DNA of 64,000 nt from a virus. Below the pieces are notes generated by a model, which was given only the letters and a program-made list of their open reading frames with translations, did not search any database and was not told the DNA's origin. Positions 19,472 through 42,246 of this stretch are shown here, one piece after another. Within the stretch, counting starts at the first letter, position 1. Each line of letters begins with the position of its first letter. A program made the translations under genes and the position numbers. The stretch spans positions 89,884 to 153,883 of the IMG/VR virus record IMGVR_UViG_3300027833_000015; one strand, given 5' to 3'.

Positions 19472-19576
19472 TGGGCATATTCCTTATATAATTCTCTGGG
19501 GGTAGAGTTATATAGGCGTATGCTCAGTGGTAAAATATAGTACCCTAAAAATATTTTAGGGTAGTATTAACTGACG

Positions 19577-21187
19577 TTATGACCACTTATAATCAGACGC
19601 TTTGTAGGTCTTGCTGAACTTGGCAAAGTCTTTCTTGATGTATCCTTTGTCTTGTTCTTTGCCTACGAGGTGACGTCCGCGCTTGGAGTCAAGGTAGTCT
19701 CTGACGTGAGTATCTTGTCCACCAGTATGCTTCTTGACATCAGCGTGGGTCTTCGCATATCCTGCTTTGGTCTTCGTTTCGTTACCGCCATGCTTGACGT
19801 TATGAGAAGTGTTGTAGTATCCACCACCTTCGTTTCCGCTCTTGACAGCAAGACCTTCTTGCATAGTCTTCTTGACGATCTTACCCACTGCCTTGTTGTT
19901 ACCCTTGGCGCGTTTCGGGTCTTTAGATGCCTTGTTGTTGTAGCGAGTCAGAAGATCTGTGCTCAACTCATCAACCTGCTCGACAGATTCTTTGCGCACT
20001 CGATCATACAAGTCGCCATTCCACTTCCAGTCTTTCTTATTGAAAGACTTTTTCTTCTTTTCCTTTTGATATTCTGCACTAGACAATTTATTAGTCTTAC
20101 CAGCATTAGCACGTCCAGATTCTTCAACCTGCTCGACAGATTCTTTATGACTCAGGCGTGGTTTCTTTCGGGTATCTTTACGACCCTTCATGAAGTCTGC
20201 TTTGGACTTAACCTGCTTGACAGAAGAGTCGCGACTTGTGCTCTGGCCATCGGTAGGATTGATCGTTGATTCTTTCTGTGCGCGTTTGAGTTGTATCTGT
20301 TGTGAACGATCAGCACCGTCCATACGGTTGCTGTGCTTATCCATTGCCTTGGTGAATCGTGCTGCTTGCTTTTGAGTTGCTACACCACTTGCGCTCTTAC
20401 GAACAGTGGCGATAGTTTTGTCCATTGTCTTACGCAGGTTCCTTCCACTTGTGGCATTCTTCCTGTCATAACGCTTCAGGAGTTTATTGCTCAACTCATC
20501 AACCTGCTCGACAGATTCGTTTTTCTTTGCGTAACGTGCTTTTTTGACAAGCGCAAACCCTTTAGTTCTATGGCGCAACTTATCGAGTTTAGTCAGACCA
20601 CCTTTCTTATTGATATTATTTGCTGCCCTTGACATACCAAATTCACGGTTCATAGATTTGTGAGAAAGAGTATCAGACCTAGAGTTTTGATCCTTATTCG
20701 CTTTCTTCAAATATGATATGCTGGTCGCTTTAGAGAGTTCATCAACTTGCTCGACAGATTCTTTGACTGGTTTGCGATTGAGGATATGTCTGCTGAATGA
20801 ATCTTTGGAAATATTCTTATGAGCGGCATCTGCTGCTTTAGGATCTCTGCCATGCTTGACGACGATAGTTTCTTTCTTACCGTTCTTCTGTATACCAGTG
20901 CTGTGGGTAGAATACTCGTACTCTTGCTTCGCTGGTTTTGCTTTCGCTAATGCTGCTTTCTTCGCTTTCTTTTTTGCATTCGCTGCTATTTTGAGATAGT
21001 TGGAAGGGATCTTTGCTTCATCGACTTCAACTTCTTCTTTCTGTTGAATCCTTTTCTTGCCCATGATCTCGATGTAACGTCGAGTGACGGGAGCACGCTT
21101 CTTCTTTGAACCCATGTCAACGGTGTCTTGTGGAATACCAGCATCACCTGCTGTCATTGTTTCTGAGAAGTCACTAAACTTTTTCAT
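19577..21187 (-). CDS. Basic modular polyprotein with capsid-targeting-like N-terminus
   Basis: MKKFSDFSE start; four ESVEQV(D/E)E linkers separating Lys/Arg-rich modules. Confidence 0.75.
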   Translation of the reverse strand: MKKFSDFSETMTAGDAGIPQDTVDMGSKKKRAPVTRRYIEIMGKKRIQQKEEVEVDEAKIPSNYLKIAANAKKKAKKAALAKAKPAKQEYEYSTHSTGIQKNGKKETIVVKHGRDPKAADAAHKNISKDSFSRHILNRKPVKESVEQVDELSKATSISYLKKANKDQNSRSDTLSHKSMNREFGMSRAANNINKKGGLTKLDKLRHRTKGFALVKKARYAKKNESVEQVDELSNKLLKRYDRKNATSGRNLRKTMDKTIATVRKSASGVATQKQAARFTKAMDKHSNRMDGADRSQQIQLKRAQKESTINPTDGQSTSRDSSVKQVKSKADFMKGRKDTRKKPRLSHKESVEQVEESGRANAGKTNKLSSAEYQKEKKKKSFNKKDWKWNGDLYDRVRKESVEQVDELSTDLLTRYNNKASKDPKRAKGNNKAVGKIVKKTMQEGLAVKSGNEGGGYYNTSHNVKHGGNETKTKAGYAKTHADVKKHTGGQDTHVRDYLDSKRGRHLVGKEQDKGYIKKDFAKFSKTYKASDYKWS

Positions 21188-21244
21188 TACTCTATCCTAG
21201 TATTAAACTTATGCATCTATTTAGTCCAGCAGAGATCTGTGTCT

Positions 21245-21772
21245 CTACTTTCTTTCCAAGTAGAACACTGATTGTTGCGGAGTGGATTTTACTATTATCT
21301 TGAATTTCTTTCCGAAGAATTTCTTCGACATGCGGAGATAGAGTTTCTCTCTACTCGCCAGTGTCTTTGGGTTTGATCCTTTCGGTTTCTCTGCACCGAA
21401 CGAAACATATTTTGGATTTTCTTTCTTTATGAAGTCATCGCATATCTTCATAACAGTAGAGAATATCTTCAGAGCATCTCCACCGCCAGTAACATCATAT
21501 GATGCTTTTCCGAGGGTAGTGTATTCCTTGCCGAATTTCGTCAAGACCTGCTTCGACCTTCGACTAAATCCGAGATCCCACATATAATAATCATCATCGT
21601 CTGCGTTTTCAGAACCGACTATATCGACATCGAGTCGACTTCTTTCTGTCTTTCCGTCTTTGCCTGTGAATTCAGAATCGAACCCGTATGAGTATTCGTC
21701 TTCGGCAACCTTCCTGCCAGTGAACTTATATGAGGAATCAAACGCTTCGTTGAATTGTGAGAATGTTTTCAT
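21245..21772 (-). CDS. Putative internal head protein
   Basis: N-terminus MKTFSQFNE resembles the T4 capsid targeting sequence MKTYQEFIAE. Confidence 0.65.
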   Translation of the reverse strand: MKTFSQFNEAFDSSYKFTGRKVAEDEYSYGFDSEFTGKDGKTERSRLDVDIVGSENADDDDYYMWDLGFSRRSKQVLTKFGKEYTTLGKASYDVTGGGDALKIFSTVMKICDDFIKKENPKYVSFGAEKPKGSNPKTLASREKLYLRMSKKFFGKKFKIIVKSTPQQSVFYLERK

Positions 21773-22356
21773 TATACCTTTCCGTATGAAAACATTATGG
21801 GCATCTGCTTGATGCCGACTGCCTTTGCAATTCCAAGTCTATGATTGCCTTCCCCCAGAAGAACTTCAACGTCACCGTTCTTTCTTCGGTCGATGGAAAC
21901 ATAACCGTGTTCTTTGATTCCGTTCTTCTTGATGTCAGCAGTCAGTTTCTTCATCTCTGCTTCGGTGTTCTTACCAGTGTATCCACCAATCATCTTGCGG
22001 TCGTATTCTCTTATCTTCCACAACTCGCTTACGTCAATCATCGGTGTAAAGTTATCAGCAACCTTTAGGTTACCATTCGCAAATATCTTGATGATGTTCT
22101 CAAGTGTTACCTTACCACCACATGCTTTTTTCAGTTCGCCTTGTGAACGGACATACTCAGAAAACCCTTCTTGTTTCTGCCCACTGTACTTCCGTGGTCT
22201 GTATTGTTTGTACGGACTCTTTGGTTTGGCATACTTTGCGAGGACAGCATCCGACTTCTTCATCACCTTATTGATTTCTGCCTGAGAGACAGGTTCAAAG
22301 TCTGCGAGTAAGTCGTCGAGGAAACCCTCTTCGATAAACTGGGAAAATGATTTCAT
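21772..22356 (-). CDS. ParB/Srx-like domain protein with capsid-targeting-like N-terminus
   Basis: MKSFSQFIEE; IKKNGIKE...EGNHRL...GIKQMP. Confidence 0.7.
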   Translation of the reverse strand: MKSFSQFIEEGFLDDLLADFEPVSQAEINKVMKKSDAVLAKYAKPKSPYKQYRPRKYSGQKQEGFSEYVRSQGELKKACGGKVTLENIIKIFANGNLKVADNFTPMIDVSELWKIREYDRKMIGGYTGKNTEAEMKKLTADIKKNGIKEHGYVSIDRRKNGDVEVLLGEGNHRLGIAKAVGIKQMPIMFSYGKV

Positions 22357-22934
22357 CGTCTCAGTTCTTCACTGGCGACGTAGATCTTTTGGTTAGTGCG
22401 AATATGCACTGCTTCGAATATGTCCAACCCGAGAATGTTGTCGAGTGGATATGCATTATCAAGCACACGGACTTTATCACCTGCCTTGCAGACTTCTTCG
22501 CACGTGCTCGCGAGGACTTTGGGTTCAGCGAGTGTATACATGCCACTGGAGAGCATCCCGTCCTTGGCGCAAAACCAAGAGGTGTGTTCTACCAAGTCCA
22601 GTGTCGAGTCTAGGTCACACGCCTCTACAATTCTCTCCACCCCTGCTTCCCCAAGGTCAAGGTGTTCTTTTATGAGGTAGAGTGCGGACGCATAGGAGGC
22701 GAGTTTGGATTTGCCTCCAGGGACTTTGGCGAGTAATTTCTTGAGGTTGAAGACCAGACGGTGGAATAAGTTGTATGCACTTTTCTCGTCATTGCCTTCG
22801 GGCGAGCGGAGTTTCTTTCCGTCTTTGTCTATAAGACCCATCTTGAATGCATTGCTATCTTCGAAACTGGTTGTCAGCAAACGCAAGAAGCGCAGCGTGT
22901 AGACCAAATCAGCAGTTTTAGAAAGTATACCCAT
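22353..22934 (-). CDS. Conserved T4-like hypothetical (probably structural) protein
   Basis: YTLRFLRLL...AFKMGLIDKDGKKL motif. Confidence 0.7.
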   Translation of the reverse strand: MGILSKTADLVYTLRFLRLLTTSFEDSNAFKMGLIDKDGKKLRSPEGNDEKSAYNLFHRLVFNLKKLLAKVPGGKSKLASYASALYLIKEHLDLGEAGVERIVEACDLDSTLDLVEHTSWFCAKDGMLSSGMYTLAEPKVLASTCEEVCKAGDKVRVLDNAYPLDNILGLDIFEAVHIRTNQKIYVASEELRR

Positions 22935-23299
22935 TAAATTGTTTCCAGTCTGGCGACCACTACAGGGTCTCCTATAATTCCTTCAAGATCGCCTTCTTTC
23001 AATGCAACAAGGTGTTCAAGAAATGGTTTTATCACACTGAGATTGTCTGGACCCAACTTGAACAGCAGCATAAGTATTGCTGGTTCATTACCAAACACAT
23101 TCAATAATATGATAACATGATTCAGTATCAATCGTTCACAGAGTTCACCGCCTCTGGTGTATCTGTTTATCAATCTCTTGATGTACTTAAAACGATTAAG
23201 TTCTTCGTAAAAATCTTCCGCATCTATCGCGCGAGGACTATAATAATTATTCGCAGCGTAGATGAGGAAGATTTCATCGTTTAGTTCTTTGACGATCAT
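22934..23299 (-). CDS. Conserved T4-like hypothetical protein
   Basis: RFKYIKRL, RLILNHVIILLNVFG. Confidence 0.75.
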   Translation of the reverse strand: MIVKELNDEIFLIYAANNYYSPRAIDAEDFYEELNRFKYIKRLINRYTRGGELCERLILNHVIILLNVFGNEPAILMLLFKLGPDNLSVIKPFLEHLVALKEGDLEGIIGDPVVVARLETI

Positions 23300-23335
23300 G
23301 CAGATTCCTCTATAGTATAGAGTTATCTATAACTT

Positions 23336-23674
23336 CTATTCGGAACGCAGTTCCAAGTCAGCAATCATGTTCACCTTAGTCATCCTTCGATCAAGTTCGA
23401 TATCCAGAGTTCGACCATAGTGTTCAATCTGCGACTTATTCATACGCATCAGAGTAGCAGCACTCTTTCGATCATCCTTGACCACTTCAACTTTATCAGA
23501 ATGGTGCTCTGCTTCCACTTTATCCATCTCGTCTTCGATATCAACCAGACTCATAGTCTGATGGTGGATGATACCTAGATCTTCGCTGTCACTCTTCATG
23601 AACTTGACAACAAAGGTGATGACGATACATGCTATTGCTCCGAGAGCAAGAACCTGTGGTGATAATAAATCCAT
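23336..23674 (-). CDS. Membrane-anchored hypothetical protein
   Basis: N-terminal TM helix. Confidence 0.6.
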   Translation of the reverse strand: MDLLSPQVLALGAIACIVITFVVKFMKSDSEDLGIIHHQTMSLVDIEDEMDKVEAEHHSDKVEVVKDDRKSAATLMRMNKSQIEHYGRTLDIELDRRMTKVNMIADLELRSE

Positions 23675-23695
23675 AATAATTTCCTTAGTTTACGT

Positions 23696-25165
23696 TTAAT
23701 CGTGATGAGTTTTTTGACCAAGATTATCTTTTGTGTACCCTGTTGCCTTCATGTGCGCCTTATATGCTTTGTGGGAGTCACTACCCTTTCCACCAAGATG
23801 CTTCTTGACAAAATCACCGTGAAACCCCTTCTTGCTACCCGACACCATGCCATTATCGTGGTTATTAGCATCTGCTGAGTGTTGCTTTACAGCGGATGCA
23901 GCGGATGCACCGTGAACCTTTTTAATTCGGTTCAGAGTCGCCTTTGCCGCATGTCCTGCGCGTTCTGGGTCGGGGTGACCCATATCTGGATCTGAGTTAC
24001 CATGGTGCTCAAAATGCTTTGCTGCAAGATGCCCCAAATCACTATTACTAGACTCCAGAATTTGACGAAGTTCTTCGATCTCCGTCTTCAGTGCATCAAC
24101 TTCTTCAGTTACTTTTTTTTTAACAGGATTGACAACTGCCTTGTCGCCATTCTTGAGTTGATCAGAATTACCACGTGCTGGAGATGCTTTAGTAGCACGA
24201 CCTGCTTTGGATACATCCTTGTGTCCCTGCTCTTCTTTGTCTTCGATGTCTTTCTCAGACTTCTTGTGCATAGCAATGAAGTCTTTTGACTTGTTAGACT
24301 CTTTATCAGCAATGCCTTCAGGGTTAGTTGCGCCCTTGGTGTGCTCGTCTGATTTCTCATCAAGACCTTGAAGGATAACAGCGAGGTCTTGCAACCATGC
24401 AGACTCTTCAACAGATTCTTTTCGAGTCGCTGGAACCTTTGCATACTTGCCTTTGATCTTGTCACCTGCCCAACCAGATCCAGTAACACGCTTGTCGAAT
24501 TTTGCGTGAGAAGAGGCAGGTGGTTTCTTACCGCCATGATCAAACTTTGACATATGGTCTGTTGTTTGAGCGTCTGCTTTTTTCTTATATCGGGTCAACA
24601 GTTTCTTTGATAGTTCGTCCAGTTGCTCTTCGCACAGTCCATCGACAATATCTTCAACAGATTCTTTTCGAGTCGCTGGAACCTTTGCATACTTGCCTTT
24701 GATCTTGTCACCTGCCCAACCAGATCCAGTAACACGCTTGTCGAATTTTGCGTGGGATCCTGCTGGTGGTTTCTTACCGCCATGGTCGTACTTTGACATA
24801 TGATCTGTTGTTTGAGCGTCTGCTTTTTTCTTGTATCGGGTCAACAGTTTCTTCGATAGTTCGTCCAGTTGCTCTTCGTCCAGACTCCCGACAAAATCTT
24901 CAACAGATTCTTTCTTGACGCTTGGCAGGTCAGAGGCATCAGGGTTAGACTTGTCGCCTTTGCGCACTGGTGCTTTCTTGTTATGAGCAGCAGGTGCTTC
25001 TTCAACAACGTCTGCTTTGTTCTTCTTATTGCGGAGGTCAGCAAGGTCGTCGCCTTCGATGTCACCATCGTTATCGACGTCGAGTGCTTTCTGCTTGTCA
25101 GAAAGTTTCTTCTCTTGTACTTCCTGGAACGCAGTCCAGATTGCTTCGATTTCTTTAATGTCCAT
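23696..25165 (-). CDS. Modular head-associated polyprotein with EF-hand-like loop and internal duplication
   Basis: DVDNDGDIEGDD loop; KESVE linkers; 82-aa tandem repeat. Confidence 0.7.
   Translation of the reverse strand: MDIKEIEAIWTAFQEVQEKKLSDKQKALDVDNDGDIEGDDLADLRNKKNKADVVEEAPAAHNKKAPVRKGDKSNPDASDLPSVKKESVEDFVGSLDEEQLDELSKKLLTRYKKKADAQTTDHMSKYDHGGKKPPAGSHAKFDKRVTGSGWAGDKIKGKYAKVPATRKESVEDIVDGLCEEQLDELSKKLLTRYKKKADAQTTDHMSKFDHGGKKPPASSHAKFDKRVTGSGWAGDKIKGKYAKVPATRKESVEESAWLQDLAVILQGLDEKSDEHTKGATNPEGIADKESNKSKDFIAMHKKSEKDIEDKEEQGHKDVSKAGRATKASPARGNSDQLKNGDKAVVNPVKKKVTEEVDALKTEIEELRQILESSNSDLGHLAAKHFEHHGNSDPDMGHPDPERAGHAAKATLNRIKKVHGASAASAVKQHSADANNHDNGMVSGSKKGFHGDFVKKHLGGKGSDSHKAYKAHMKATGYTKDNLGQKTHHD
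24405..24912. repeat. In-frame tandem duplication, 246-bp unit x2
   Basis: TCTTCAACAGATTCTTT recurs at 24405, 24651 and 24897. Confidence 0.95.
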
Positions 25166-25181
25166 CTTGATACCTATTGTA

Positions 25182-25535
25182 TTATTCGTTTGAGTCGGTT
25201 CTATTTATACTATCTTCATAGTACACTATTATACTTTGTTGCTGCTCGATGTATCTTCTTATTTCTGCCATGTTTAGTGACAAATTCTCATAGTCAGGAA
25301 CCGAGATAGCGATATAGACGTTGTCACCAGTTTCTTTCCTAAACTCCACCTTGAACTGTTCTTCGTTCTGAGGAGTAACAACGCGCCACTCTATGTCTTG
25401 CATTACGACAGCACGTGGACGACCCTTTGGTTCTATAACCTGATCGACATATTCAATTTTAGTTATTGTCTTTCCAGCACATCCGCTAATTAGCAGTAAT
25501 AGACTCAAGGTTATCAAATACCTTACGTGTACCAT
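25182..25535 (-). CDS. o-spanin (Rz1-like lipoprotein)
   Basis: Lipobox LISGC; overlaps the i-spanin gene. Confidence 0.75.
   Translation of the reverse strand: MVHVRYLITLSLLLLISGCAGKTITKIEYVDQVIEPKGRPRAVVMQDIEWRVVTPQNEEQFKVEFRKETGDNVYIAISVPDYENLSLNMAEIRRYIEQQQSIIVYYEDSINRTDSNE
25202..25209 (-). promoter_or_regulatory. T4-type late promoter TATAAATA
   Basis: Exact consensus upstream of the 23696..25165 gene. Confidence 0.65.
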
Positions 25536-25866
25536 TGTTTATAATCCTTTCTATCATTTCAGGTTTCCGTGTAGCAAGATTAGTCAGTTGATGATCCCTG
25601 AATATCTGCAACACCTCTTCGCGTTTCTCTTCAGCACTAAGCATGTTGGCAGAAAGTTCAACGTTCAACTCTGCCTGTGCTCTTGCTTGCTCGAGCAACT
25701 GCCCAACAGCAGCAGCGTTAGCAATTGCTGTTTCTTCAAGCACAGCGTTCTCTGCTATAAGGTTGTCTATCTTCTTGACCTGCCACCACACAATACCAGA
25801 AACACCACCAACTATAGTGGTGATGACAACTGCTATGATTGCATACTTCTGTACTGCACCAAACAT
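25486..25866 (-). CDS. i-spanin (Rz-like)
   Basis: N-terminal TM followed by coiled coil, KPEMIERIIN. Confidence 0.75.
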   Translation of the reverse strand: MFGAVQKYAIIAVVITTIVGGVSGIVWWQVKKIDNLIAENAVLEETAIANAAAVGQLLEQARAQAELNVELSANMLSAEEKREEVLQIFRDHQLTNLATRKPEMIERIINNGTRKVFDNLESITAN

Positions 25867-25867
25867 T

Positions 25868-28843
25868 TTACTTCATTCCTCTCAGTGCTTTGGTCATCAA
25901 CACGACGAACTTACGCTTGTCGACAGGTTTCTGTATAGCATCATGCTTCTTCAGAAGAGCATCGATCTTACCTTTGCTCAACGCCACAGTACGAGTTGGC
26001 GAGACGAGAACATCGCCAGTTTTGTCGCCATGGTTCATAGAGTCTTGCGCGATACGGAGTTGCATGATGATGTTACGATCAGAAGCATCAGCAGAACCTT
26101 TGTGGGTTTTGCCCTTGGCAGTCTTTGTAGTAGTCTTCGCCTTTGGTGCTGCTTTCTTCGCTTTCTTCTCTGCTGCAACTGCTGCTTGTGCCTTTGCTTT
26201 CAGAGCGCGGAACTCTGGACCACGTGGTATGTTCTTTGGACCACCAACCATATCTTGCATCTTCTTGACTACAACATCAGACAGTGCTTCGTTGACTTTG
26301 CCCCAGTTACCTGAGATTGAATCTGTCATAGTATCTTCTCCAAGTGATTTCTTTTTCTTCCTCAGCGCGACCAGTTTTTCGAGGTAGTGCTTACGCTGCC
26401 AGTGCTGGTCTGCTTGTGTTGGGTTCATTGGTCGTCTTTTGTGATCTGCCTGACCCTGTTTGATTTCTTGGGTAGTGTCTTTGATTTCACGGTTGACCTC
26501 TTTCATAGACCACTTTGGGTTTATATTGAGGACTAACTTTCTGCCTTCTTCAACTTGCCTGAAAGATTCGTTTTTCTGTTCTTTCTTTGCGTCATCGTAT
26601 GCGCGTCTTGCTACCTGTTTGATTATCTTGCCTATGGCATGTGTAGTTTGACGTTGCGTTGAAGACATATCGTCCCCGTACACTATTTTGCCCTGCTCCT
26701 TCGCCTTTTTTTCTCCCTTGTTAAAACGAGGGTTTTGGCCAAGATTCCTCTTCTCTCCACTGGCCATTGTTCTTATATAACCTTTCTGTAGAGTTCCGAG
26801 TTTCGCTGCCACCTTTGCATCAACTGTCTTGAAAACATACTTATCAAGTTTGTCTCGACCACCTTGTTTAAATGCAGCAACGCCATCTTTCCTGACGAAG
26901 ACGACAGACCTGACGATCTTATCAAACTCGGGGTCTGCTTCCATTGCCATACGAATTTGATCTTCTAGTGCTTTGTCTTTCGCTTTTCTCTTATTTTTCT
27001 TGGTTGGTATTGCGGCACCGACAGCAACAATAAAATCACGAATATCGTTCAACACGCCTTCATCAACTTGCTCGACAGATTCCATTCGACCTTGTACCTT
27101 ATTCGTTGTATAACTACCAACCTTGGTAGTCTTATTTGCGTTGTCAGCATACTTCTTTGCTGCTGATGCTGATTTGAAATTCTTTGAAGACGAATCTGCT
27201 TTGCCTTTCTCGTCGCGGAACTGGACGGAGAAATATGCTTCTTCAACTTGCTCAACAGATTCTTTGACACCCTTATACTTCTTTATTCCTTTTGCTACTT
27301 CCTTCTTCGCAGCGGTTTTACTAGAAATCCTCTCGATTTGTTGTATTGCACTTTGGTAAAAATTACTATCATATCTACTGAGAGTTTTTGGGAGTCCTCC
27401 AGATTTCTTGAGGTAGTGGTTTATGGTGTCTTTTGCATCATCAAGTAGTTCTGGTTCTTTCTCTTTTCGCGCTTGCGAACGATCCGCATCGTTCTGTTTA
27501 CGGATACGCATAACGGACGACCTTGTTGGTCCCCAAGTATTGAGACCGTGCACGCCACCGCCACGCGTGGACTCATCAACTTGCTGGACTGCTTCCCTGA
27601 TGCTGACGTTTGGTGCAGGGTGTACGCTCGCAGACGGGTGGATCTCGATGAACTTTTCTCTGCCCGTCTCCATGTCCATTATCCTGCCTACAAAATCTTC
27701 GTCATTGTTATCTCTACCCAGTTCAACATAGACAAAATACTTCTTTCCAACCAGTTCGACGGAAAGTCTTACGATCTTCTTCTTCTTTGACTTCGCCAGT
27801 TTGAATATGTTAGTCACGACTCGTTTTACTTTTGCTGGTAAGTCGTCTTTGGACAGATAATTAGAAGATGCTTCGAGAACCTGCTGGTATGACTCAGTAG
27901 ATGCGACCTTCGCTGTACCAGTCTGCTTCTTGAGTCCTAACTTGATTCCTTTCTCTCGCTTGGCGCGGAGTTTAGAATCGCCTCTGGTCTTTGCATCGTC
28001 AGACTGATGCATAGACTTCGACAAGTAGTTGTGGACTTTGTCGTTTGACAACTCATCCAACTTGCTTGATTCTTTAGGGACACAATTCGGTACGGTCTTA
28101 CCACCTTTCTTCTTGGTGCCTACCTGCTTGTGCGAGTCCCAACATGCTTCTGTTTGGACATCTTGGTGTGCGGGAACCATCTTGACACCAGTAGTGCCAT
28201 CTGGTTTCTTGAATTTTACTGGTTTCTTTGCAGAAGAATTTGGGTCACCTGCGTCTTCAGATACCCGATCATTCTCGCGCTCTTGCTTCTTGGCGAGTCG
28301 AACCTTTTGATTCGCGTGTCGCAGTTTCATTCTTGCTGAGTCCTTTTCTGATTTGGCGTTTTCGACAGATTCCTTTTGCAGTTCCGAACTTTGCATTCTA
28401 TGCGATACGAGCGAGGAATTATCTGCGAGACTAACACCATGAATGCCTTTCTTAGCAAGACCAGTCGCAGTACGATTGACTTTAACTTTCTTTCCATGTA
28501 ACTCATGACCTTTCTTGTTCACTACACGAGTTGATCCCATCGGGTGTGGGTTCTTTGCTTCATCAACTTGCTCGACAGATTCGTTCTTGCTGTGTGTCCA
28601 ACCTCTTGCCTTCAATACAAGGTGGGTCGCTTTGCTATCTGCGCGCTTCGTCTCGCCTGTGTCTGGATGGAACATATCATGGGGTACAAACTCGTCAGCA
28701 GACTCATACCTGTTCGAGTGCTTGCTGTAACCACGCTTGTCGTCTTTCTTACGGTCGCGTTGGACAGTTGCCTTGTTGAAAGTTCTCATGTGTTTCGCAA
28801 CTGGGTTGCCTTTGTTTGACGGTGGTGTGCTTTTATCTTTCAT
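25868..28843 (-). CDS. Large basic modular polyprotein (991 aa)
   Basis: Three exact and several degenerate ESVEQVDE linkers; CWDSHKQVGTKKKGGKTVPNCVP module. Confidence 0.75.
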   Translation of the reverse strand: MKDKSTPPSNKGNPVAKHMRTFNKATVQRDRKKDDKRGYSKHSNRYESADEFVPHDMFHPDTGETKRADSKATHLVLKARGWTHSKNESVEQVDEAKNPHPMGSTRVVNKKGHELHGKKVKVNRTATGLAKKGIHGVSLADNSSLVSHRMQSSELQKESVENAKSEKDSARMKLRHANQKVRLAKKQERENDRVSEDAGDPNSSAKKPVKFKKPDGTTGVKMVPAHQDVQTEACWDSHKQVGTKKKGGKTVPNCVPKESSKLDELSNDKVHNYLSKSMHQSDDAKTRGDSKLRAKREKGIKLGLKKQTGTAKVASTESYQQVLEASSNYLSKDDLPAKVKRVVTNIFKLAKSKKKKIVRLSVELVGKKYFVYVELGRDNNDEDFVGRIMDMETGREKFIEIHPSASVHPAPNVSIREAVQQVDESTRGGGVHGLNTWGPTRSSVMRIRKQNDADRSQARKEKEPELLDDAKDTINHYLKKSGGLPKTLSRYDSNFYQSAIQQIERISSKTAAKKEVAKGIKKYKGVKESVEQVEEAYFSVQFRDEKGKADSSSKNFKSASAAKKYADNANKTTKVGSYTTNKVQGRMESVEQVDEGVLNDIRDFIVAVGAAIPTKKNKRKAKDKALEDQIRMAMEADPEFDKIVRSVVFVRKDGVAAFKQGGRDKLDKYVFKTVDAKVAAKLGTLQKGYIRTMASGEKRNLGQNPRFNKGEKKAKEQGKIVYGDDMSSTQRQTTHAIGKIIKQVARRAYDDAKKEQKNESFRQVEEGRKLVLNINPKWSMKEVNREIKDTTQEIKQGQADHKRRPMNPTQADQHWQRKHYLEKLVALRKKKKSLGEDTMTDSISGNWGKVNEALSDVVVKKMQDMVGGPKNIPRGPEFRALKAKAQAAVAAEKKAKKAAPKAKTTTKTAKGKTHKGSADASDRNIIMQLRIAQDSMNHGDKTGDVLVSPTRTVALSKGKIDALLKKHDAIQKPVDKRKFVVLMTKALRGMK

Positions 28844-29028
28844 GGGTTGCCTTTGTAATTTAGTGTAACTTCTTTACCCTGATATGTTGCTTCGGTGAAC
28901 TCTTTAAACGACTTCATGCCCGTCTCATTTGGCGTCAACTTCTTTGCTCGACGAACAGAGGCATCCGTGCCCCACTCATGCTTACATGGATCATACTGAT
29001 CTGATTTCTTGTCCGTCTTTTTTCGCAT
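28840..29028 (-). CDS. Small head-associated protein, possibly truncated
   Basis: EWGTD motif and an internal MKSFKEFTE. Confidence 0.55.
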   Translation of the reverse strand: MRKKTDKKSDQYDPCKHEWGTDASVRRAKKLTPNETGMKSFKEFTEATYQGKEVTLNYKGNP

Positions 29029-29202: not shown

Positions 29203-29210
29203 TATTTATA
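29203..29210 (-). promoter_or_regulatory. T4-type late promoter TATAAATA
   Basis: Exact consensus. Confidence 0.75.
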
Positions 29211-30971: not shown

Positions 30972-31970
30972 TTATTTGATTCGTGATGCGAATGGGGTTA
31001 TTCTTTTCTTCATCGCTTTCTGAAGACCAGCATTCTTTGATGCGTTTACTGTGGCATATCGTTTCTTGCCGCCACGGACAGGGTTTGGTATAAACTCTGC
31101 GCCAGTTGGTGCAGGGATAAACTCTGCGCTTGACGGTATGTCGCTTCCTTCCTCGACTTTCTCAACTGCGTCCAACCATTTACGCTTAAACGTCTCTTCG
31201 CCCAGTTGGACTATTATATAGTTGCTACCGAGGTGTGTTATAATACCGACTTCGTCAGACTCCCTGACAACCACTTGGTCGCCCAGTTCAAACAGTTCGC
31301 CTTTGACAAACTTCTCTCGAGTCTCTGATACTGGTTCCAGTTCAACGTGCCGACTGAATACTGTATTCTCTTTGAGTCCCATACCTGAGCGCACATCCAT
31401 ATAGAGTTTCTTGGCGTCCTTGTTATTCATGCCACCCAGACCCTGCGAGAAATCAGCAAAGTTGTTGTCAGCAGCATGCTTACGCATCTTAGATGCCGAC
31501 ATACCATCAACTCCATCTGAATCTGGATCACGTTCACCAGCAGAGACGATATTGATTGACTGGAAGTTATAGAAACCGTGGTTGCCCTTCACACCATTGT
31601 ACTTGTCGAGCAAGGTCTTGAACTCACGGACTCGGTCAGAACCAACAACCATAGTGACGGTCTTGAACCCTTGGTCGTAGAGATACGATGCTGCGTCAAA
31701 TGGAGTGCGGACTTTCTTGTTCACGATAATCCTTCGCGCGTGTCTCGGGAACATCTTACGAACGTGCTTGACTTTATCGGTGTATGATAGTGGGTTCTTC
31801 TTGGCGTCTTGCGACTGAGACAAGAATACGAAATATGGGTTCTTACCAGATGCCTTGCCGAGTTTGTCGAGAAGTTTCTCGTGCCCGACAGTCGGTGGGT
31901 TCATACGACCGAATGTGAAGTATGCTGCCTTGCCGTCTTCAATAAGGTAGTCTTTGAATGATATAGGCAT
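30972..31970 (-). CDS. Cytidyltransferase-like (HxGH superfamily) protein
   Basis: FGRMNPPTVGHEKL, VVGSDR, MSASKMR. Confidence 0.85.
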   Translation of the reverse strand: MPISFKDYLIEDGKAAYFTFGRMNPPTVGHEKLLDKLGKASGKNPYFVFLSQSQDAKKNPLSYTDKVKHVRKMFPRHARRIIVNKKVRTPFDAASYLYDQGFKTVTMVVGSDRVREFKTLLDKYNGVKGNHGFYNFQSINIVSAGERDPDSDGVDGMSASKMRKHAADNNFADFSQGLGGMNNKDAKKLYMDVRSGMGLKENTVFSRHVELEPVSETREKFVKGELFELGDQVVVRESDEVGIITHLGSNYIIVQLGEETFKRKWLDAVEKVEEGSDIPSSAEFIPAPTGAEFIPNPVRGGKKRYATVNASKNAGLQKAMKKRITPFASRIK

Positions 31971-39402: not shown

Positions 39403-42246
39403 TTATGGGTTTGTGTAGTTACGATCAAACCGCTGCTGTATTGGCAGACTTACGTTTGATGTGGTATCAACATTCGATAGTTTTAAGTATTTATAATCGA
39501 TGCTAACCAGTACAATATCAACAGAAGATATACCAAGCAGGTCAAAAGATTCTGAAGTTGTAGAATTTTCAACCGCACCAACCTCAACACCAGTGGAACT
39601 ATCATAGACCCTGACTTCTGTGTTGACCTGTAGAGTGTTGAGTGTTAACACAACTGGGTTTAAAATATTGATTATGCCATCCTCGGTTGCAAAGCATTTG
39701 TCAATGACTAAGTTTGTGCCATTTGAGTTTGTCCAGTTTAAAGTGCCTGTTCCGCGCCATTCAAGATGTAAACTACTCAAAGGATTGAATGTTAGATTAT
39801 CTCCAGATAAGTTTAATGTGCCAGATGCATTTGCGATACGGATGGTAAGAGAGTCATTGGCAAATGTAGAATTTGCCAGAGTATCTAACTGCGCTTGCAT
39901 ATTTTCTTCTGTACCGTTTGTTATAACGTGTGTCGGTGACGCACCTCTGTTAAACACTTCTTCCATTTTATCATCGGACAAAAACTTCGTCCATGATGCC
40001 CAATATGCAAAGTATGTATCCTCTTGATAAGCAAATGCTACGTCAGTGCCACCCACCTCTAAGTTACCTTGTGCTGCCCCGAACACAATATCTCCAGAGT
40101 GACCATCAAGGTCGGTTGCTGCCATTGGGTTTCCTTGTGATGCGGTTTGACGGACACCATCAATATAAAGCATAAAATTTCGGTCGGTCGATGTGTTGTA
40201 GTCAAACTTAAATGCAATATGGTAAGACCTATTGGGTTCTAAGGAAAAATCACTAAACGCTTGTATATTATCATCGCCAGTATCTGCCAACTGAGCAATG
40301 AGGACATTACCCACCCCCACAAAAAAAGCAAGGTTGTTTATCGAACCACCTTCCTCATAAGCACAAGACAATTGTTTCTGTATTCCACCCAATCGAATCC
40401 AACCACCCATTGTCCTTGTCGTTTCTGCTTGGTTATTCATAAAGTCAGAGTTTGGGACTTCTCTTTTTCCATTTTGATTGCGCCAAGAAAGTGTAGTTCC
40501 ATCCACTAGAGGAACGGAAGCAAACCCATTTACTCCTGTTGGGGTTACTGTCATATTATTAGTACTGATAGAATCGTCATAGTCACCATCTAATTTCCAA
40601 AGGTGATCTGGTTCACTCTGTTCGATAACGAAAGCATAAGATGCTAGTCCAACGCTTATCGGTAACAGATTACTAGATCTACCAAAACTTGTGACCCACA
40701 GGTACGCTTGTCCTTGTATAAGGGATATAAGATCAGTACCATCAAACGTAATCTGTGTGTCAGACCAACTGGTGACAGTCTGTGTAACACTAGATGAACG
40801 ATCTGAAGAGTTTGATATATAAACACCTCCACTACCTTGATTAGGACCAAACCTCGCCCCTTGAATAGTAAGACCAGTTTGTGTAAGCGAAATGGTTTCG
40901 TCATTTATACTATTGACTGATGGTGGAAATGAATATGATCCATAAAGACTCGTTAATGATAAGACTGAAAACTGAGATTGATCTGCGTTGAGTGCCCCAG
41001 CAACTGCTGATGGGTTTGTTAATATTTGCATTGAATTATTTTGTTCGATTGGAACAATGTCTCCGACCGTCACCGCACAAACTCCAGACCCTGCTGCTCT
41101 ATGATAGACACCAGCACATGCAGTAGTCGATGCAACGTTGTTCGACCTCACTTTTATCAGTGGATATGCCCTTTGTGGACTATCTGGGGCATCTTGGTGG
41201 AAGGTGGAAAAAACCAGACAGAAATCAGTTTCACCCAAAAGAGTTATATCACTACTATTATTGGTCGCAGAAAACCTAGAAGAATCTATATAATCGACAG
41301 TGTCAAATGTAAAATTGCCACTTTTATTATAGTCACCAGAAGTCGCCCCCAACATTGCAACATCTCCTGCGCTGGGTATTTTCCAAAAATGTATAGTCGC
41401 GTTATCTGCAGGTATGACGAAAGTGGCAGTCCACGGGATTGCACATTTTAATTCTATTGAAGAGTTCGCAGGAAGGTCTACTATCCCTTGCCATGTCAAA
41501 GCGGCACTCTGCGTTCCATCAGCACCACGAACATAAGAATAACTTTGTGATGCAGCAATCTCGGTTCCATTATTTGTAAGTCTGCCCACAACGTCTTCGC
41601 GACCCGTTCCTGTTTGCGAACACTGAAGAGAATAGGTTATATAATATCTTCCTGCGTCTGCTATTGTAATAGCATTTCCCACTCTAGAAAACGCAGCATC
41701 TTCTAGAAGGTTTGAGTTAAAAGCAATCGTACTTTCTGTTAGATTCAAGTTTTGTGATGCGGTTGCTTTGTATAAACCCAAGTTATCCAAATCATCTATC
41801 TGTAAAACGATAACAGAACCAAAACCCGAAACACGGTTGCAAGGACTTACGGTACTGTCATCACTTCTATAAAACCTTGTCGTGAATGTTGCTGTGCTAG
41901 CAACATCGATGAGCATTGAACTGCCCATATAAACTTCTTGTTGTCCAGTTGTCTTTCGGATGTAGTCTTGACAGAATCCACCATTTCCTTGTGCGCCAGT
42001 TACAATCAACTCTCCCTGTATTTCAAACCTGTCATTATTGGTTATGTCATTGGTCAAGAATGACTCAGAATATAAGACCAAGTATTTTCCTGATGAGAGG
42101 GTAAAGACTCCACTGTTGTAAGTTGCAGCAGAACCTTGAATGACAGATTCATTGTCCCACTCAAGATCAACAGGTACTCCCCCATTTGGAAGTACGGTAG
42201 TATTATCTGAGAAGTTACTTCTAATGTAGATGTCACCGATTGCCAT
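39403..42246 (-). CDS. Large virion adhesin-like protein (IPT-like + LamG/ConA domains)
   Basis: SWSDTQI, HLWKLD, MLYIDG; C-terminal DRNYTNP. Confidence 0.7.
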   Translation of the reverse strand: MAIGDIYIRSNFSDNTTVLPNGGVPVDLEWDNESVIQGSAATYNSGVFTLSSGKYLVLYSESFLTNDITNNDRFEIQGELIVTGAQGNGGFCQDYIRKTTGQQEVYMGSSMLIDVASTATFTTRFYRSDDSTVSPCNRVSGFGSVIVLQIDDLDNLGLYKATASQNLNLTESTIAFNSNLLEDAAFSRVGNAITIADAGRYYITYSLQCSQTGTGREDVVGRLTNNGTEIAASQSYSYVRGADGTQSAALTWQGIVDLPANSSIELKCAIPWTATFVIPADNATIHFWKIPSAGDVAMLGATSGDYNKSGNFTFDTVDYIDSSRFSATNNSSDITLLGETDFCLVFSTFHQDAPDSPQRAYPLIKVRSNNVASTTACAGVYHRAAGSGVCAVTVGDIVPIEQNNSMQILTNPSAVAGALNADQSQFSVLSLTSLYGSYSFPPSVNSINDETISLTQTGLTIQGARFGPNQGSGGVYISNSSDRSSSVTQTVTSWSDTQITFDGTDLISLIQGQAYLWVTSFGRSSNLLPISVGLASYAFVIEQSEPDHLWKLDGDYDDSISTNNMTVTPTGVNGFASVPLVDGTTLSWRNQNGKREVPNSDFMNNQAETTRTMGGWIRLGGIQKQLSCAYEEGGSINNLAFFVGVGNVLIAQLADTGDDNIQAFSDFSLEPNRSYHIAFKFDYNTSTDRNFMLYIDGVRQTASQGNPMAATDLDGHSGDIVFGAAQGNLEVGGTDVAFAYQEDTYFAYWASWTKFLSDDKMEEVFNRGASPTHVITNGTEENMQAQLDTLANSTFANDSLTIRIANASGTLNLSGDNLTFNPLSSLHLEWRGTGTLNWTNSNGTNLVIDKCFATEDGIINILNPVVLTLNTLQVNTEVRVYDSSTGVEVGAVENSTTSESFDLLGISSVDIVLVSIDYKYLKLSNVDTTSNVSLPIQQRFDRNYTNP

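Follow-up and report, generated by a model that had tools for sequence, protein, structure and literature searches.

Modular basic proteins and their linkers

The window analysed in this work is a 64,000-nt stretch of IMG/VR record IMGVR_UViG_3300027833_000015 (positions 89,884 to 153,883), belonging to the 153.9-kb contig of an uncultured marine T4-like myovirus. Three large open reading frames (ORFs) on its minus strand, 19577..21187, 23696..25165, and 25868..28843, encode proteins of 536, 489, and 991 aa, in which short, mostly basic modules are joined by a repeated acidic linker. These ORFs had been singled out in a first-pass annotation made from the sequence alone, and their boundaries were confirmed (Table 1). 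The linker peptide ESVEQV[DE]E occurred four times in the 536-aa protein (residues 143, 224, 349, and 400) and three times in the 991-aa protein (residues 88, 528, and 588) and was confined to these ORFs within the contig. All exact copies and named variants of the first-pass annotation were present; its list was incomplete, three degenerate linkers (EEVEVDE, KESTINPT, and KESVENAK) having been missed. The joints of the 489-aa protein were two KESVED...EQLDE motifs and a third, KESVEES.

Modules delimited by the linkers were 43–225 aa long (5–25 kDa), which corrects an initial estimate of 35–170 aa, and had isoelectric points (pI) of 9.4–11.3, mostly ~10–11. Their characterization as rich in Lys and Arg and poor in Glu agreed with the measured composition (K+R 0.20–0.33, D+E 0.05–0.13) except in the first module of the 489-aa protein, which was acidic (pI 5.0). 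Sequences flanking the linkers were unrelated to each other.

The linker was conserved in DNA as well. A plus-strand linker 20-mer was present without mismatches at 19971, 20124, 20499, 20742, 27063, and 28563, with one mismatch at 27243, and with three mismatches at 26550 and 27576. These nine matches with up to three mismatches compare with 0.01 expected from shuffled sequences. The linkers shared the codons GAA TCT GTC GAG CAR GTT, and the chance that five of the six other exact copies share all five codons under the codon usage of the genome was ~8e-11, so the proposed conservation at synonymous positions was borne out. An RNA hairpin in the linker was ruled out because a CAA/CAG polymorphism breaks the only possible stem. 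A 2A-like "stop-go" peptide was ruled out by the absence of the D-x-E-x-NPGP motif.

Linker peptide, linker DNA, and cassette exchange

A degenerate-codon scan of IMG/VR detected the exact linker peptide, written with other codons, in 24 further contigs, always in frame and inside K/R-rich ORFs. Genes neighbouring these loci (DUF7207, phrog_18642, cytidyltransferase, phrog_455, and ribonucleotide reductase) shared only 30–60% aa identity with their counterparts in the window; the linker peptide has thus persisted through deep divergence. The consensus of 67 unique linkers from relatives was [K/R/N]-E-[S/D/E]-V-E-Q-V/I-D-E, with E(-7), V(-5), Q(-3), and E(0) invariant or nearly so and both flanks variable. 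Since the key residues are near-invariant while the flanks vary, the divergence is deep, and the codons differ, selection acts on the linker peptide.

A 30-column profile comprising the linker and the module start retrieved 1,958 clusters (50% identity) at E<=1e-3 and 537 at E<=1e-10. Among the best 150 of the 1,958 clusters, the number of copies per protein was 2–10 and nearly always at least three. The commonest variant in this wider family was EEVEQIDE, and the linker often led into a conserved helix-like LS..L..Y..KA segment. The best clusters retrieved matched Pfam DUF7443 and phrog_5709, neither of which has an assigned function; the window proteins gave no match to these two profiles and are linked to them through the linker profile only. 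Two carriers come from cultured phages, gp159 of Prochlorococcus phage P-TIM68 (1,006 aa) and gp064 of Caulobacter phage Cr30 (682 aa). Both genes directly follow a cytidyltransferase gene, the same neighbourhood as in the window.

The exact linker 20-mer was found in eight other contigs, all from fairly close relatives with a module identity of 74–95%. When homology blocks were delimited by blastn against four relatives (L002, L003, L007, and L009), 11 of 20 internal block ends fell within 8 nt of a linker compared to 7.3% expected (P=2.6e-8), and two more, at 28372 and 20268, lay within degenerate linkers. Flanked by the linkers at 27262 and 27063, one cassette occupies position 6 in the window and position 2 in L003, two modules stand in reversed order in L002, and a cassette of the 536-aa protein matched a portion of the final module of a 995-aa DUF7230-type protein of L007 at 83% identity. 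The N-terminal 142 residues of the 536-aa protein were kept in six homologues and its last ~90 residues in all five homologues reaching the C-terminus; in the alignment, cassettes between these conserved ends were inserted, deleted, or relocated after K|ES. Shorter relatives combined cassettes of the 536-aa and 991-aa types. An alignment of orthologues had been suggested at the outset as a check on module shuffling, and the orthologues were not colinear: modules were gained, lost, duplicated, and relocated exactly at linkers.

The number of synonymous substitutions per site (dS) across the modules of one gene pair ranged from 0.06 to 1.19, and the ratio of nonsynonymous to synonymous rates (dN/dS) was 0.10–0.45 for the 991-aa protein compared with L003; the modules are under purifying selection. 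In the cassette with dS 1.19 between the window and L003, both flanking linkers were nevertheless identical or nearly so. Synonymous sites in the leader-coding DNA of three genes described below were not conserved, unlike those of the linkers, which argues that the linkers have been homogenised within the lineage. The identity of linker DNA is lineage-specific and fits repeated exchange; it looks like the outcome of homogenisation combined with crossing over at the linker, not like a signal used universally at the DNA level. Recurrent exchange is as likely to have produced it as selection for a signal. The suggestion that linker DNA serves as a recombination handle was thus upheld as regards the breakpoints, but the 20-nt identity holds in this lineage only, and distant relatives use other codons.

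Some modules could be assigned to families. The first module of the 991-aa protein (28700–28843, minus strand) is DUF7230 (PF23876, E=1e-11), which stands alone as a protein of ~40–70 aa in Vibrio, Aeromonas, and Pectobacterium phages. The last ~75 residues of the same protein (25871–26095, minus strand) were predicted to fold into a helix, a beta-hairpin, and two helices (pLDDT 80–92). The invariant residues of this C-terminal domain include MQLR.A.D and KP..KR, and it is common to the polyproteins of L003, L005–L007, L009, L016, L020, and P0045. Neither PDB nor BFVD yielded a Foldseek match to it at E<=0.001, lambda gpW being the top PDB entry (E=0.7), and a profile search of PDB sequences returned basic ribosomal proteins only. 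AlphaFold2 (AF2) modelling of the 536-aa protein from a 7-row alignment yielded mostly helices or disorder with a mean pLDDT of 37, which holds no fold information. The ESM Atlas contributed only unnamed viral clusters with scores <0.8. No match to the 536-aa and 991-aa proteins was obtained by megablast and tblastn against 50,697 phage records, and Pfam/PHROG searches gave no match of window proteins to internal protein (IP) families.

Homologues of the 489-aa protein were found in L014, L018, L002, and phage C48C1. Its acidic first module (25000–25165, minus strand) holds an EF-hand-like loop, DVDNDGDIEGDD; this N-terminal module is also present in L014, L018, and P0054, and P0056 matches the Pfam EF-hand. 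A two-Cys mini-module, (A/K)CW(D/P)..K..G.KKKGG..VPNCVP, lies at 28080–28150 (minus strand) and recurs in C48C1, P-TIM68 gp159, P0046, L026, and L028. The (A/K)CW(D/P)..VPNCVP mini-module is a cassette or C-terminal extension in many unrelated phage proteins.

Leaders, the prohead protease, and a proposed cargo model

The capsid targeting sequence (CTS) of T4 is MKTYQEFIAE (PMC8442874), in which residues 4 and 7 serve targeting and residues 8 and 10 serve processing (PMC9026906). A leader of this type (~10 residues, hydrophobic or aromatic at positions 4 and 7, Glu at 9 or 10) begins the 536-aa protein and the products of the two genes upstream; the three adjacent genes share the pattern MK[KTS]FS[DQ]F.E. 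The phage encodes a gp21-type prohead protease (Peptidase_S77, PF03420, 132 bits, contig 40928–41356), and gp21 was encoded in four of four sufficiently complete motif-carrying contigs. This protease itself begins MKLIAEFNE, that of a relative MKLISEFSE, and gp68-like core proteins MKYFSE and MKSFQEIRE; because they begin likewise, the leader type marks prohead-core components here.

The octamer TATAAATA, the T4 late-promoter box, was present nine times in the window compared to 1.3 expected, at 2133, 25202, 29203, 30525, 32554, 36393, 39488, 45944, and 52992, and always on the minus (coding) strand. The boxes are probably T4-type late promoters.

The linker K-E-S-V-E-Q-V-D-E matches the local leader M-K-S-F-S-Q-F-I-E column by column. 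It ends in V-D-E or V-E-E (I-D-E in the wider family), which fits φ-x-E, where φ is a hydrophobic residue; such a site would also have to lie in an accessible stretch, and the model here has a mean pLDDT of 37. The cleavage rule of gp21 is L/I-x-E, and Asp in place of the Glu blocks processing in T4 (PMC9026906). The gp23 maturation site of this phage, placed by alignment, is FMTE|T compared to FLTE|A in T4. Cassettes also occur on their own: the stand-alone P0048 (52 aa) consists of a CTS and the first sub-module and stops where the 536-aa protein has EEVEVDE, KVP40.0154 (start MQGFKDYF) corresponds to a linker-flanked L025 module on its own, and phage C48C1 has small individual CTS genes at the syntenic locus. 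Since the linker aligns with the leader and ends in φ-x-E and cassettes occur stand-alone, we regard the genes as CTS-led internal proteins fused into arrays and infer that each linker serves gp21 as an internal CTS-like site, S-φ-x-Q-φ-x-E. On this view, proheads would take up the proteins, and cutting would yield basic peptides of 5–25 kDa.

According to this model, the polyproteins would be built into the prohead core late in infection, the 536-aa protein at least by means of its N-terminal CTS-like leader. The gp21-type protease would then cut after the final Glu of every linker (V/I-D-E|), releasing mixed basic peptides that would remain with the DNA and probably enter the host alongside it. 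All linkers of a lineage have 20–24 identical bases in common, so that crossing over from one linker to another, inside one genome or during co-infection by relatives, would move, duplicate, delete, and swap cassettes in frame. Packaging, cleavage at the linkers, injection, and a function of the peptides are what we infer from the genes. The first-pass annotation had already proposed that these proteins are packaged, cut by gp21, and injected, and the present data strengthen this reading without amounting to proof. That the genes are arrays of small basic internal proteins made as polyproteins, loaded in the prohead, and cut by gp21 at CTS-like linkers is, in our judgement, somewhat probable. 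The broader idea of a general cargo-loading system in T4-type phages, with polyprotein cassettes that each carry their own targeting/cleavage peptide and are traded in frame via homogenised linker DNA across ~2,000 clusters, is plausible but falls a little short of probable.

Several observations weigh against cleavage of a packaged polyprotein. An N-terminal CTS is missing from the 991-aa and 489-aa proteins. Leu, Ile, or Val frequently follows the proposed cut, whereas the T4 and local sites have A, S, T, or Q there. A gp21 site has very few determinants (PMC9026906), and eight invariant residues exceed this known need, so the linker peptide may do something else or more. Within the modules φ-x-E was not depleted but in slight excess (z=+3.6), as in control ORFs, and AF2 helices ran straight through the linkers, with low confidence. 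A literature search retrieved no virion proteome of this phage or of a carrier and no support for packaging or cleavage in any member, and a cyanomyovirus virion proteome paper (PMC12801897) did not report such proteins. Absence from published proteomes is presumably weak evidence, since very K/R-rich proteins yield tryptic peptides that are too short for easy detection. A predicted complex of the gp21 homologue with residues 125–170 of the 536-aa protein scored 0.00 and weighs neither way.

An alternative is that the proteins act whole, as uncleaved beads on a string, with the acidic peptide as a repeated short binding or structural motif. The motif could begin an amphipathic helix continuing into LSxxxLxxYxxKA and docking on the scaffold, the capsid interior, DNA-bound partners, or a host protein, and the long protein could be, for example, a DNA-condensing or neutralising polymer in the head. 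A motif longer and more invariant than a gp21 site requires (PMC9026906), the helix-like segment that often follows it, the helices modelled as continuous across linkers, the undepleted φ-x-E in modules, and the frequent Leu, Ile, or Val after the motif are all in line with this. The modules are heterogeneous, however, in type and in length (43–225 aa), and some are also stand-alone genes with ends that coincide with linkers, which is unlike a single structural repeat; the motif resembles the local CTS/cleavage leader and ends in the gp21 consensus, and an exposed I/V-D-E in a prohead with active gp21 should be cut (PMC9026906). We hold uncleaved proteins to be unlikely. Less likely still is that the proteins are not virion cargo but late intracellular basic proteins engaged, for example, in phage DNA compaction or nucleoid or RNA binding, the leaders being a coincidental family signature. 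Such a role would accord with the leaderless 991-aa and 489-aa proteins, with the position of the genes amid nucleotide-metabolism and lysis genes instead of in the head cluster, and with the lack of any homologue annotated as a virion protein in the databases searched. Against it stand the same leader type on the phage's own prohead protease and gp68-like core proteins, which matches the tested T4 CTS (PMC9026906), and the late-promoter boxes upstream. Moreover, the IP genes of T4 likewise lie outside its head cluster.

Very improbable, finally, is that the linker is primarily a DNA element, either the joint or target of a mobile coding cassette or a selected recombination signal, with its translation incidental. 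Codon identity far above the prediction from codon usage, identical linkers beside the dS-1.19 cassette, breakpoints at or within the linker, and the lesser conservation of CTS-coding DNA in the three leader genes would all be accounted for in this way. But other codons are used in the 24 further contigs and the wider family has EEVEQIDE, so the constraint is on the peptide; the motif is always in frame within K/R-rich ORFs; and no recombinase or homing gene adjoins. The last point comes from the Pfam/PHROG annotation of window proteins, in which no such gene was found next to the polyprotein genes.

If linkers are cut in the head, the tailed phage would use a polyprotein strategy, one late gene delivering, along with the DNA, small basic proteins in a changeable set. 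The internal-protein model of T4 would thereby be extended, in which cargo such as IPI counters host restriction (PMC3012670). It would also offer a simple route of cargo evolution by in-frame cassette exchange at a 24-nt joint and suggest a function for ~1,960 clusters (50% identity) of "hypothetical" K/R-rich proteins. The linker may, in addition, offer a natural means of loading a T4-type capsid with several foreign proteins encoded on one construct. The cultured carriers P-TIM68 and Cr30 put the idea within direct experimental reach.

The contig carries T4-like genes for gp32, a baseplate hub protein, PhoH, and ribonucleotide reductase, and the closest records to the phage were C48C1 and Methylophilales phage Melnitz. 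Its head cluster has a T4-like order (portal, acidic gp67-like, small gp68-like, protease, scaffold, and gp23), and the polyprotein genes sit outside it. The CTS-led 194-aa neighbour had 93% nt identity in L007, while neighbouring genes differed more, and may be a packaged enzyme; PDB sequence searches of the 175-aa and 194-aa neighbours gave nothing informative. The cytidyltransferase gene (30972–31970, minus strand) begins MPISFKDYLIED, likewise CTS-like, and its family adjoins polyprotein genes in P-TIM68, Cr30, C48C1, and many contigs. The 62-aa ORF upstream of the 991-aa ORF resembles a cut-down cassette; phage C48C1 has the intact version (MKKFKQYIDE...TEAEYQGKKVTLNKP...), and L028 a fused one. 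A 12-mer of this region, AAAGGCAACCCA, is found again 39 nt on, so past recombination or deletion there is likely. A frameshift joining the 62-aa and 991-aa ORFs was considered and dropped, as their ATGA overlap looks like ordinary translational coupling.

Table 1. Features of the polyprotein region, in window coordinates
Feature	Position	Strand	Remarks
Terminator-like hairpin, 10-bp stem and T run	19541..19563	minus	directly after the 536-aa ORF
536-aa basic polyprotein, pI 10.1	19577..21187	minus	begins with a CTS-like leader; N- and C-terminal modules conserved, cassettes in the middle variable
Linker ESVEQVDE, 536-aa residues 400–407	19967..19990	minus	
Linker ESVEQVEE, 536-aa residues 349–356	20120..20143	minus	
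Degenerate linker KESTINPT, 536-aa residues 305–312	20252..20275	minus	in relatives, full ESVEQVDE here or cassette located elsewhere
Linker ESVEQVDE, 536-aa residues 224–231	20495..20518	minus	start of homology block with L002
Linker ESVEQVDE, 536-aa residues 143–150	20738..20761	minus	L007 homology block starts inside
Variant linker EEVEVDE, 536-aa residues 51–57	21017..21037	minus	DNA similarity to linker at 28548–28569 (family D8)
CTS-like leader MKKFSDFSE of the 536-aa protein	21161..21187	minus	
175-aa neighbour gene	21245..21772	minus	CTS-like leader MKTFSQFNEA
194-aa neighbour gene	21772..22356	minus	CTS-like leader MKSFSQFIEE; weak ParB-like match (phrog_723, E=0.009); GEGNHRLG motif
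489-aa protein	23696..25165	minus	acidic N-terminal module with EF-hand-like loop, then basic modules behind KESVED...EQLDE joints
Tandem duplication, 246-nt (82-aa) cassette	24405..24896	minus	inside the 489-aa gene; copies 92% identical; bounded by KESVE joints
Rz-like i-spanin and overlapping o-spanin (lipobox-like N-terminus)	25182–25866	minus	phrog_739, phrog_812; between the 991-aa and 489-aa genes
TATAAATA box, late-promoter-like	25202..25209	minus	37 nt ahead of the 489-aa ORF; a unit reaching 19541 may start here
991-aa basic polyprotein	25868..28843	minus	DUF7230 N-terminal module; 8 modules; conserved folded C-terminal domain of ~75 aa
Variant linker ESFRQVEE, 991-aa residues 759–766	26546..26569	minus	L003 has ESVEQVEE at the same place
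Linker ESVEQVDE, 991-aa residues 588–595	27059..27082	minus	two L003 homology blocks meet here
Linker ESVEQVEE, 991-aa residues 528–535	27239..27262	minus	edge of cassette placed elsewhere in L003
Variant linker EAVQQVDE, 991-aa residues 417–424	27572..27595	minus	end of block shared with L003
Variant linker ESYQQVLE, 991-aa residues 317–324	27872..27895	minus	
Variant linker KESSKLDE, 991-aa residues 257–264	28052..28075	minus	
Degenerate linker KESVENAK, 991-aa residues 157–164	28352..28375	minus	L003 homology block begins at 28372
Linker ESVEQVDE, 991-aa residues 88–95	28559..28582	minus	end of block shared with L003
62-aa ORF	28840..29028	minus	overlaps the 991-aa start by ATGA; internal CTS-like MKSFKEFTEA, then ATYQGKEVTLN
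TATAAATA box	29203..29210	minus	upstream of the 62-aa and 991-aa ORFs

Comparison with known systems

A literature search gave no description of linker-joined cargo polyproteins in tailed phages, nor of the motif or of a cyanophage CTS. The nearest counterparts are IPI, IPII, IPIII, and Alt of T4, small basic proteins with a ~10-residue leader that is aromatic at positions 4 and 7, a Glu cut site, and a gp21-type protease (PMC9026906, PMC8442874, PMC3012670). The T4 IP genes resemble those described here in being hypervariable and in their location away from the head cluster, and the mature proteins are of comparable size (5–25 kDa here). The T4 IPs are separate genes with one cut each, whereas here many cassettes share an ORF, each behind an internal CTS-like peptide. 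The present proteins also differ in having no sequence homology to IPI–III and a leader on only one of the three.

Inner-body and ejection proteins of the giant phages phiKZ, 201phi2-1, and SPN3US are similarly large and head-internal, with gp21-type processing at multiple Glu and many DNA-associated paralogues (PMC9026906, PMC5694885, PMC7411985). Their sites, however, are minimal S/A-x-E sequences and not an invariant repeated 8-mer; propeptides are removed rather than cassette arrays freed, and no shuffling at the sites has been described. The T4 core proteins gp22, gp67, and gp68 likewise receive several gp21 cuts per protein, and some products stay in the head (PMC9026906), but they are acidic, conserved scaffold components encoded in the head cluster, in contrast to the basic, hypervariable, and modular proteins of the window.

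Short conserved sequences that flank variable segments, with exchange near them, are also found in the PeSL elements (PMC2839356, PMC4122927) and the glycine-rich motifs of gp38 adhesins (PMC3157838) of T4-type phages. PeSL is an intergenic promoter plus stem-loop that moves whole genes, unlike the in-frame 24-nt coding linker between autonomous modules, and a PeSL-type regulatory cassette was rejected as an explanation because the repeat is in frame inside ORFs and no conserved hairpin was evident. The gp38 glycine-rich motifs are structural core elements of one domain, unlike the linkers here. The DUF7443/phrog_5709 repeat proteins, known only as hypothetical, use EEVEQIDE where the window has ESVEQVDE; with the window proteins they share the same acidic joint followed by an LS.KTL.SY..KA start, K/R-rich composition, multiple copies per protein, and a cytidyltransferase neighbour.

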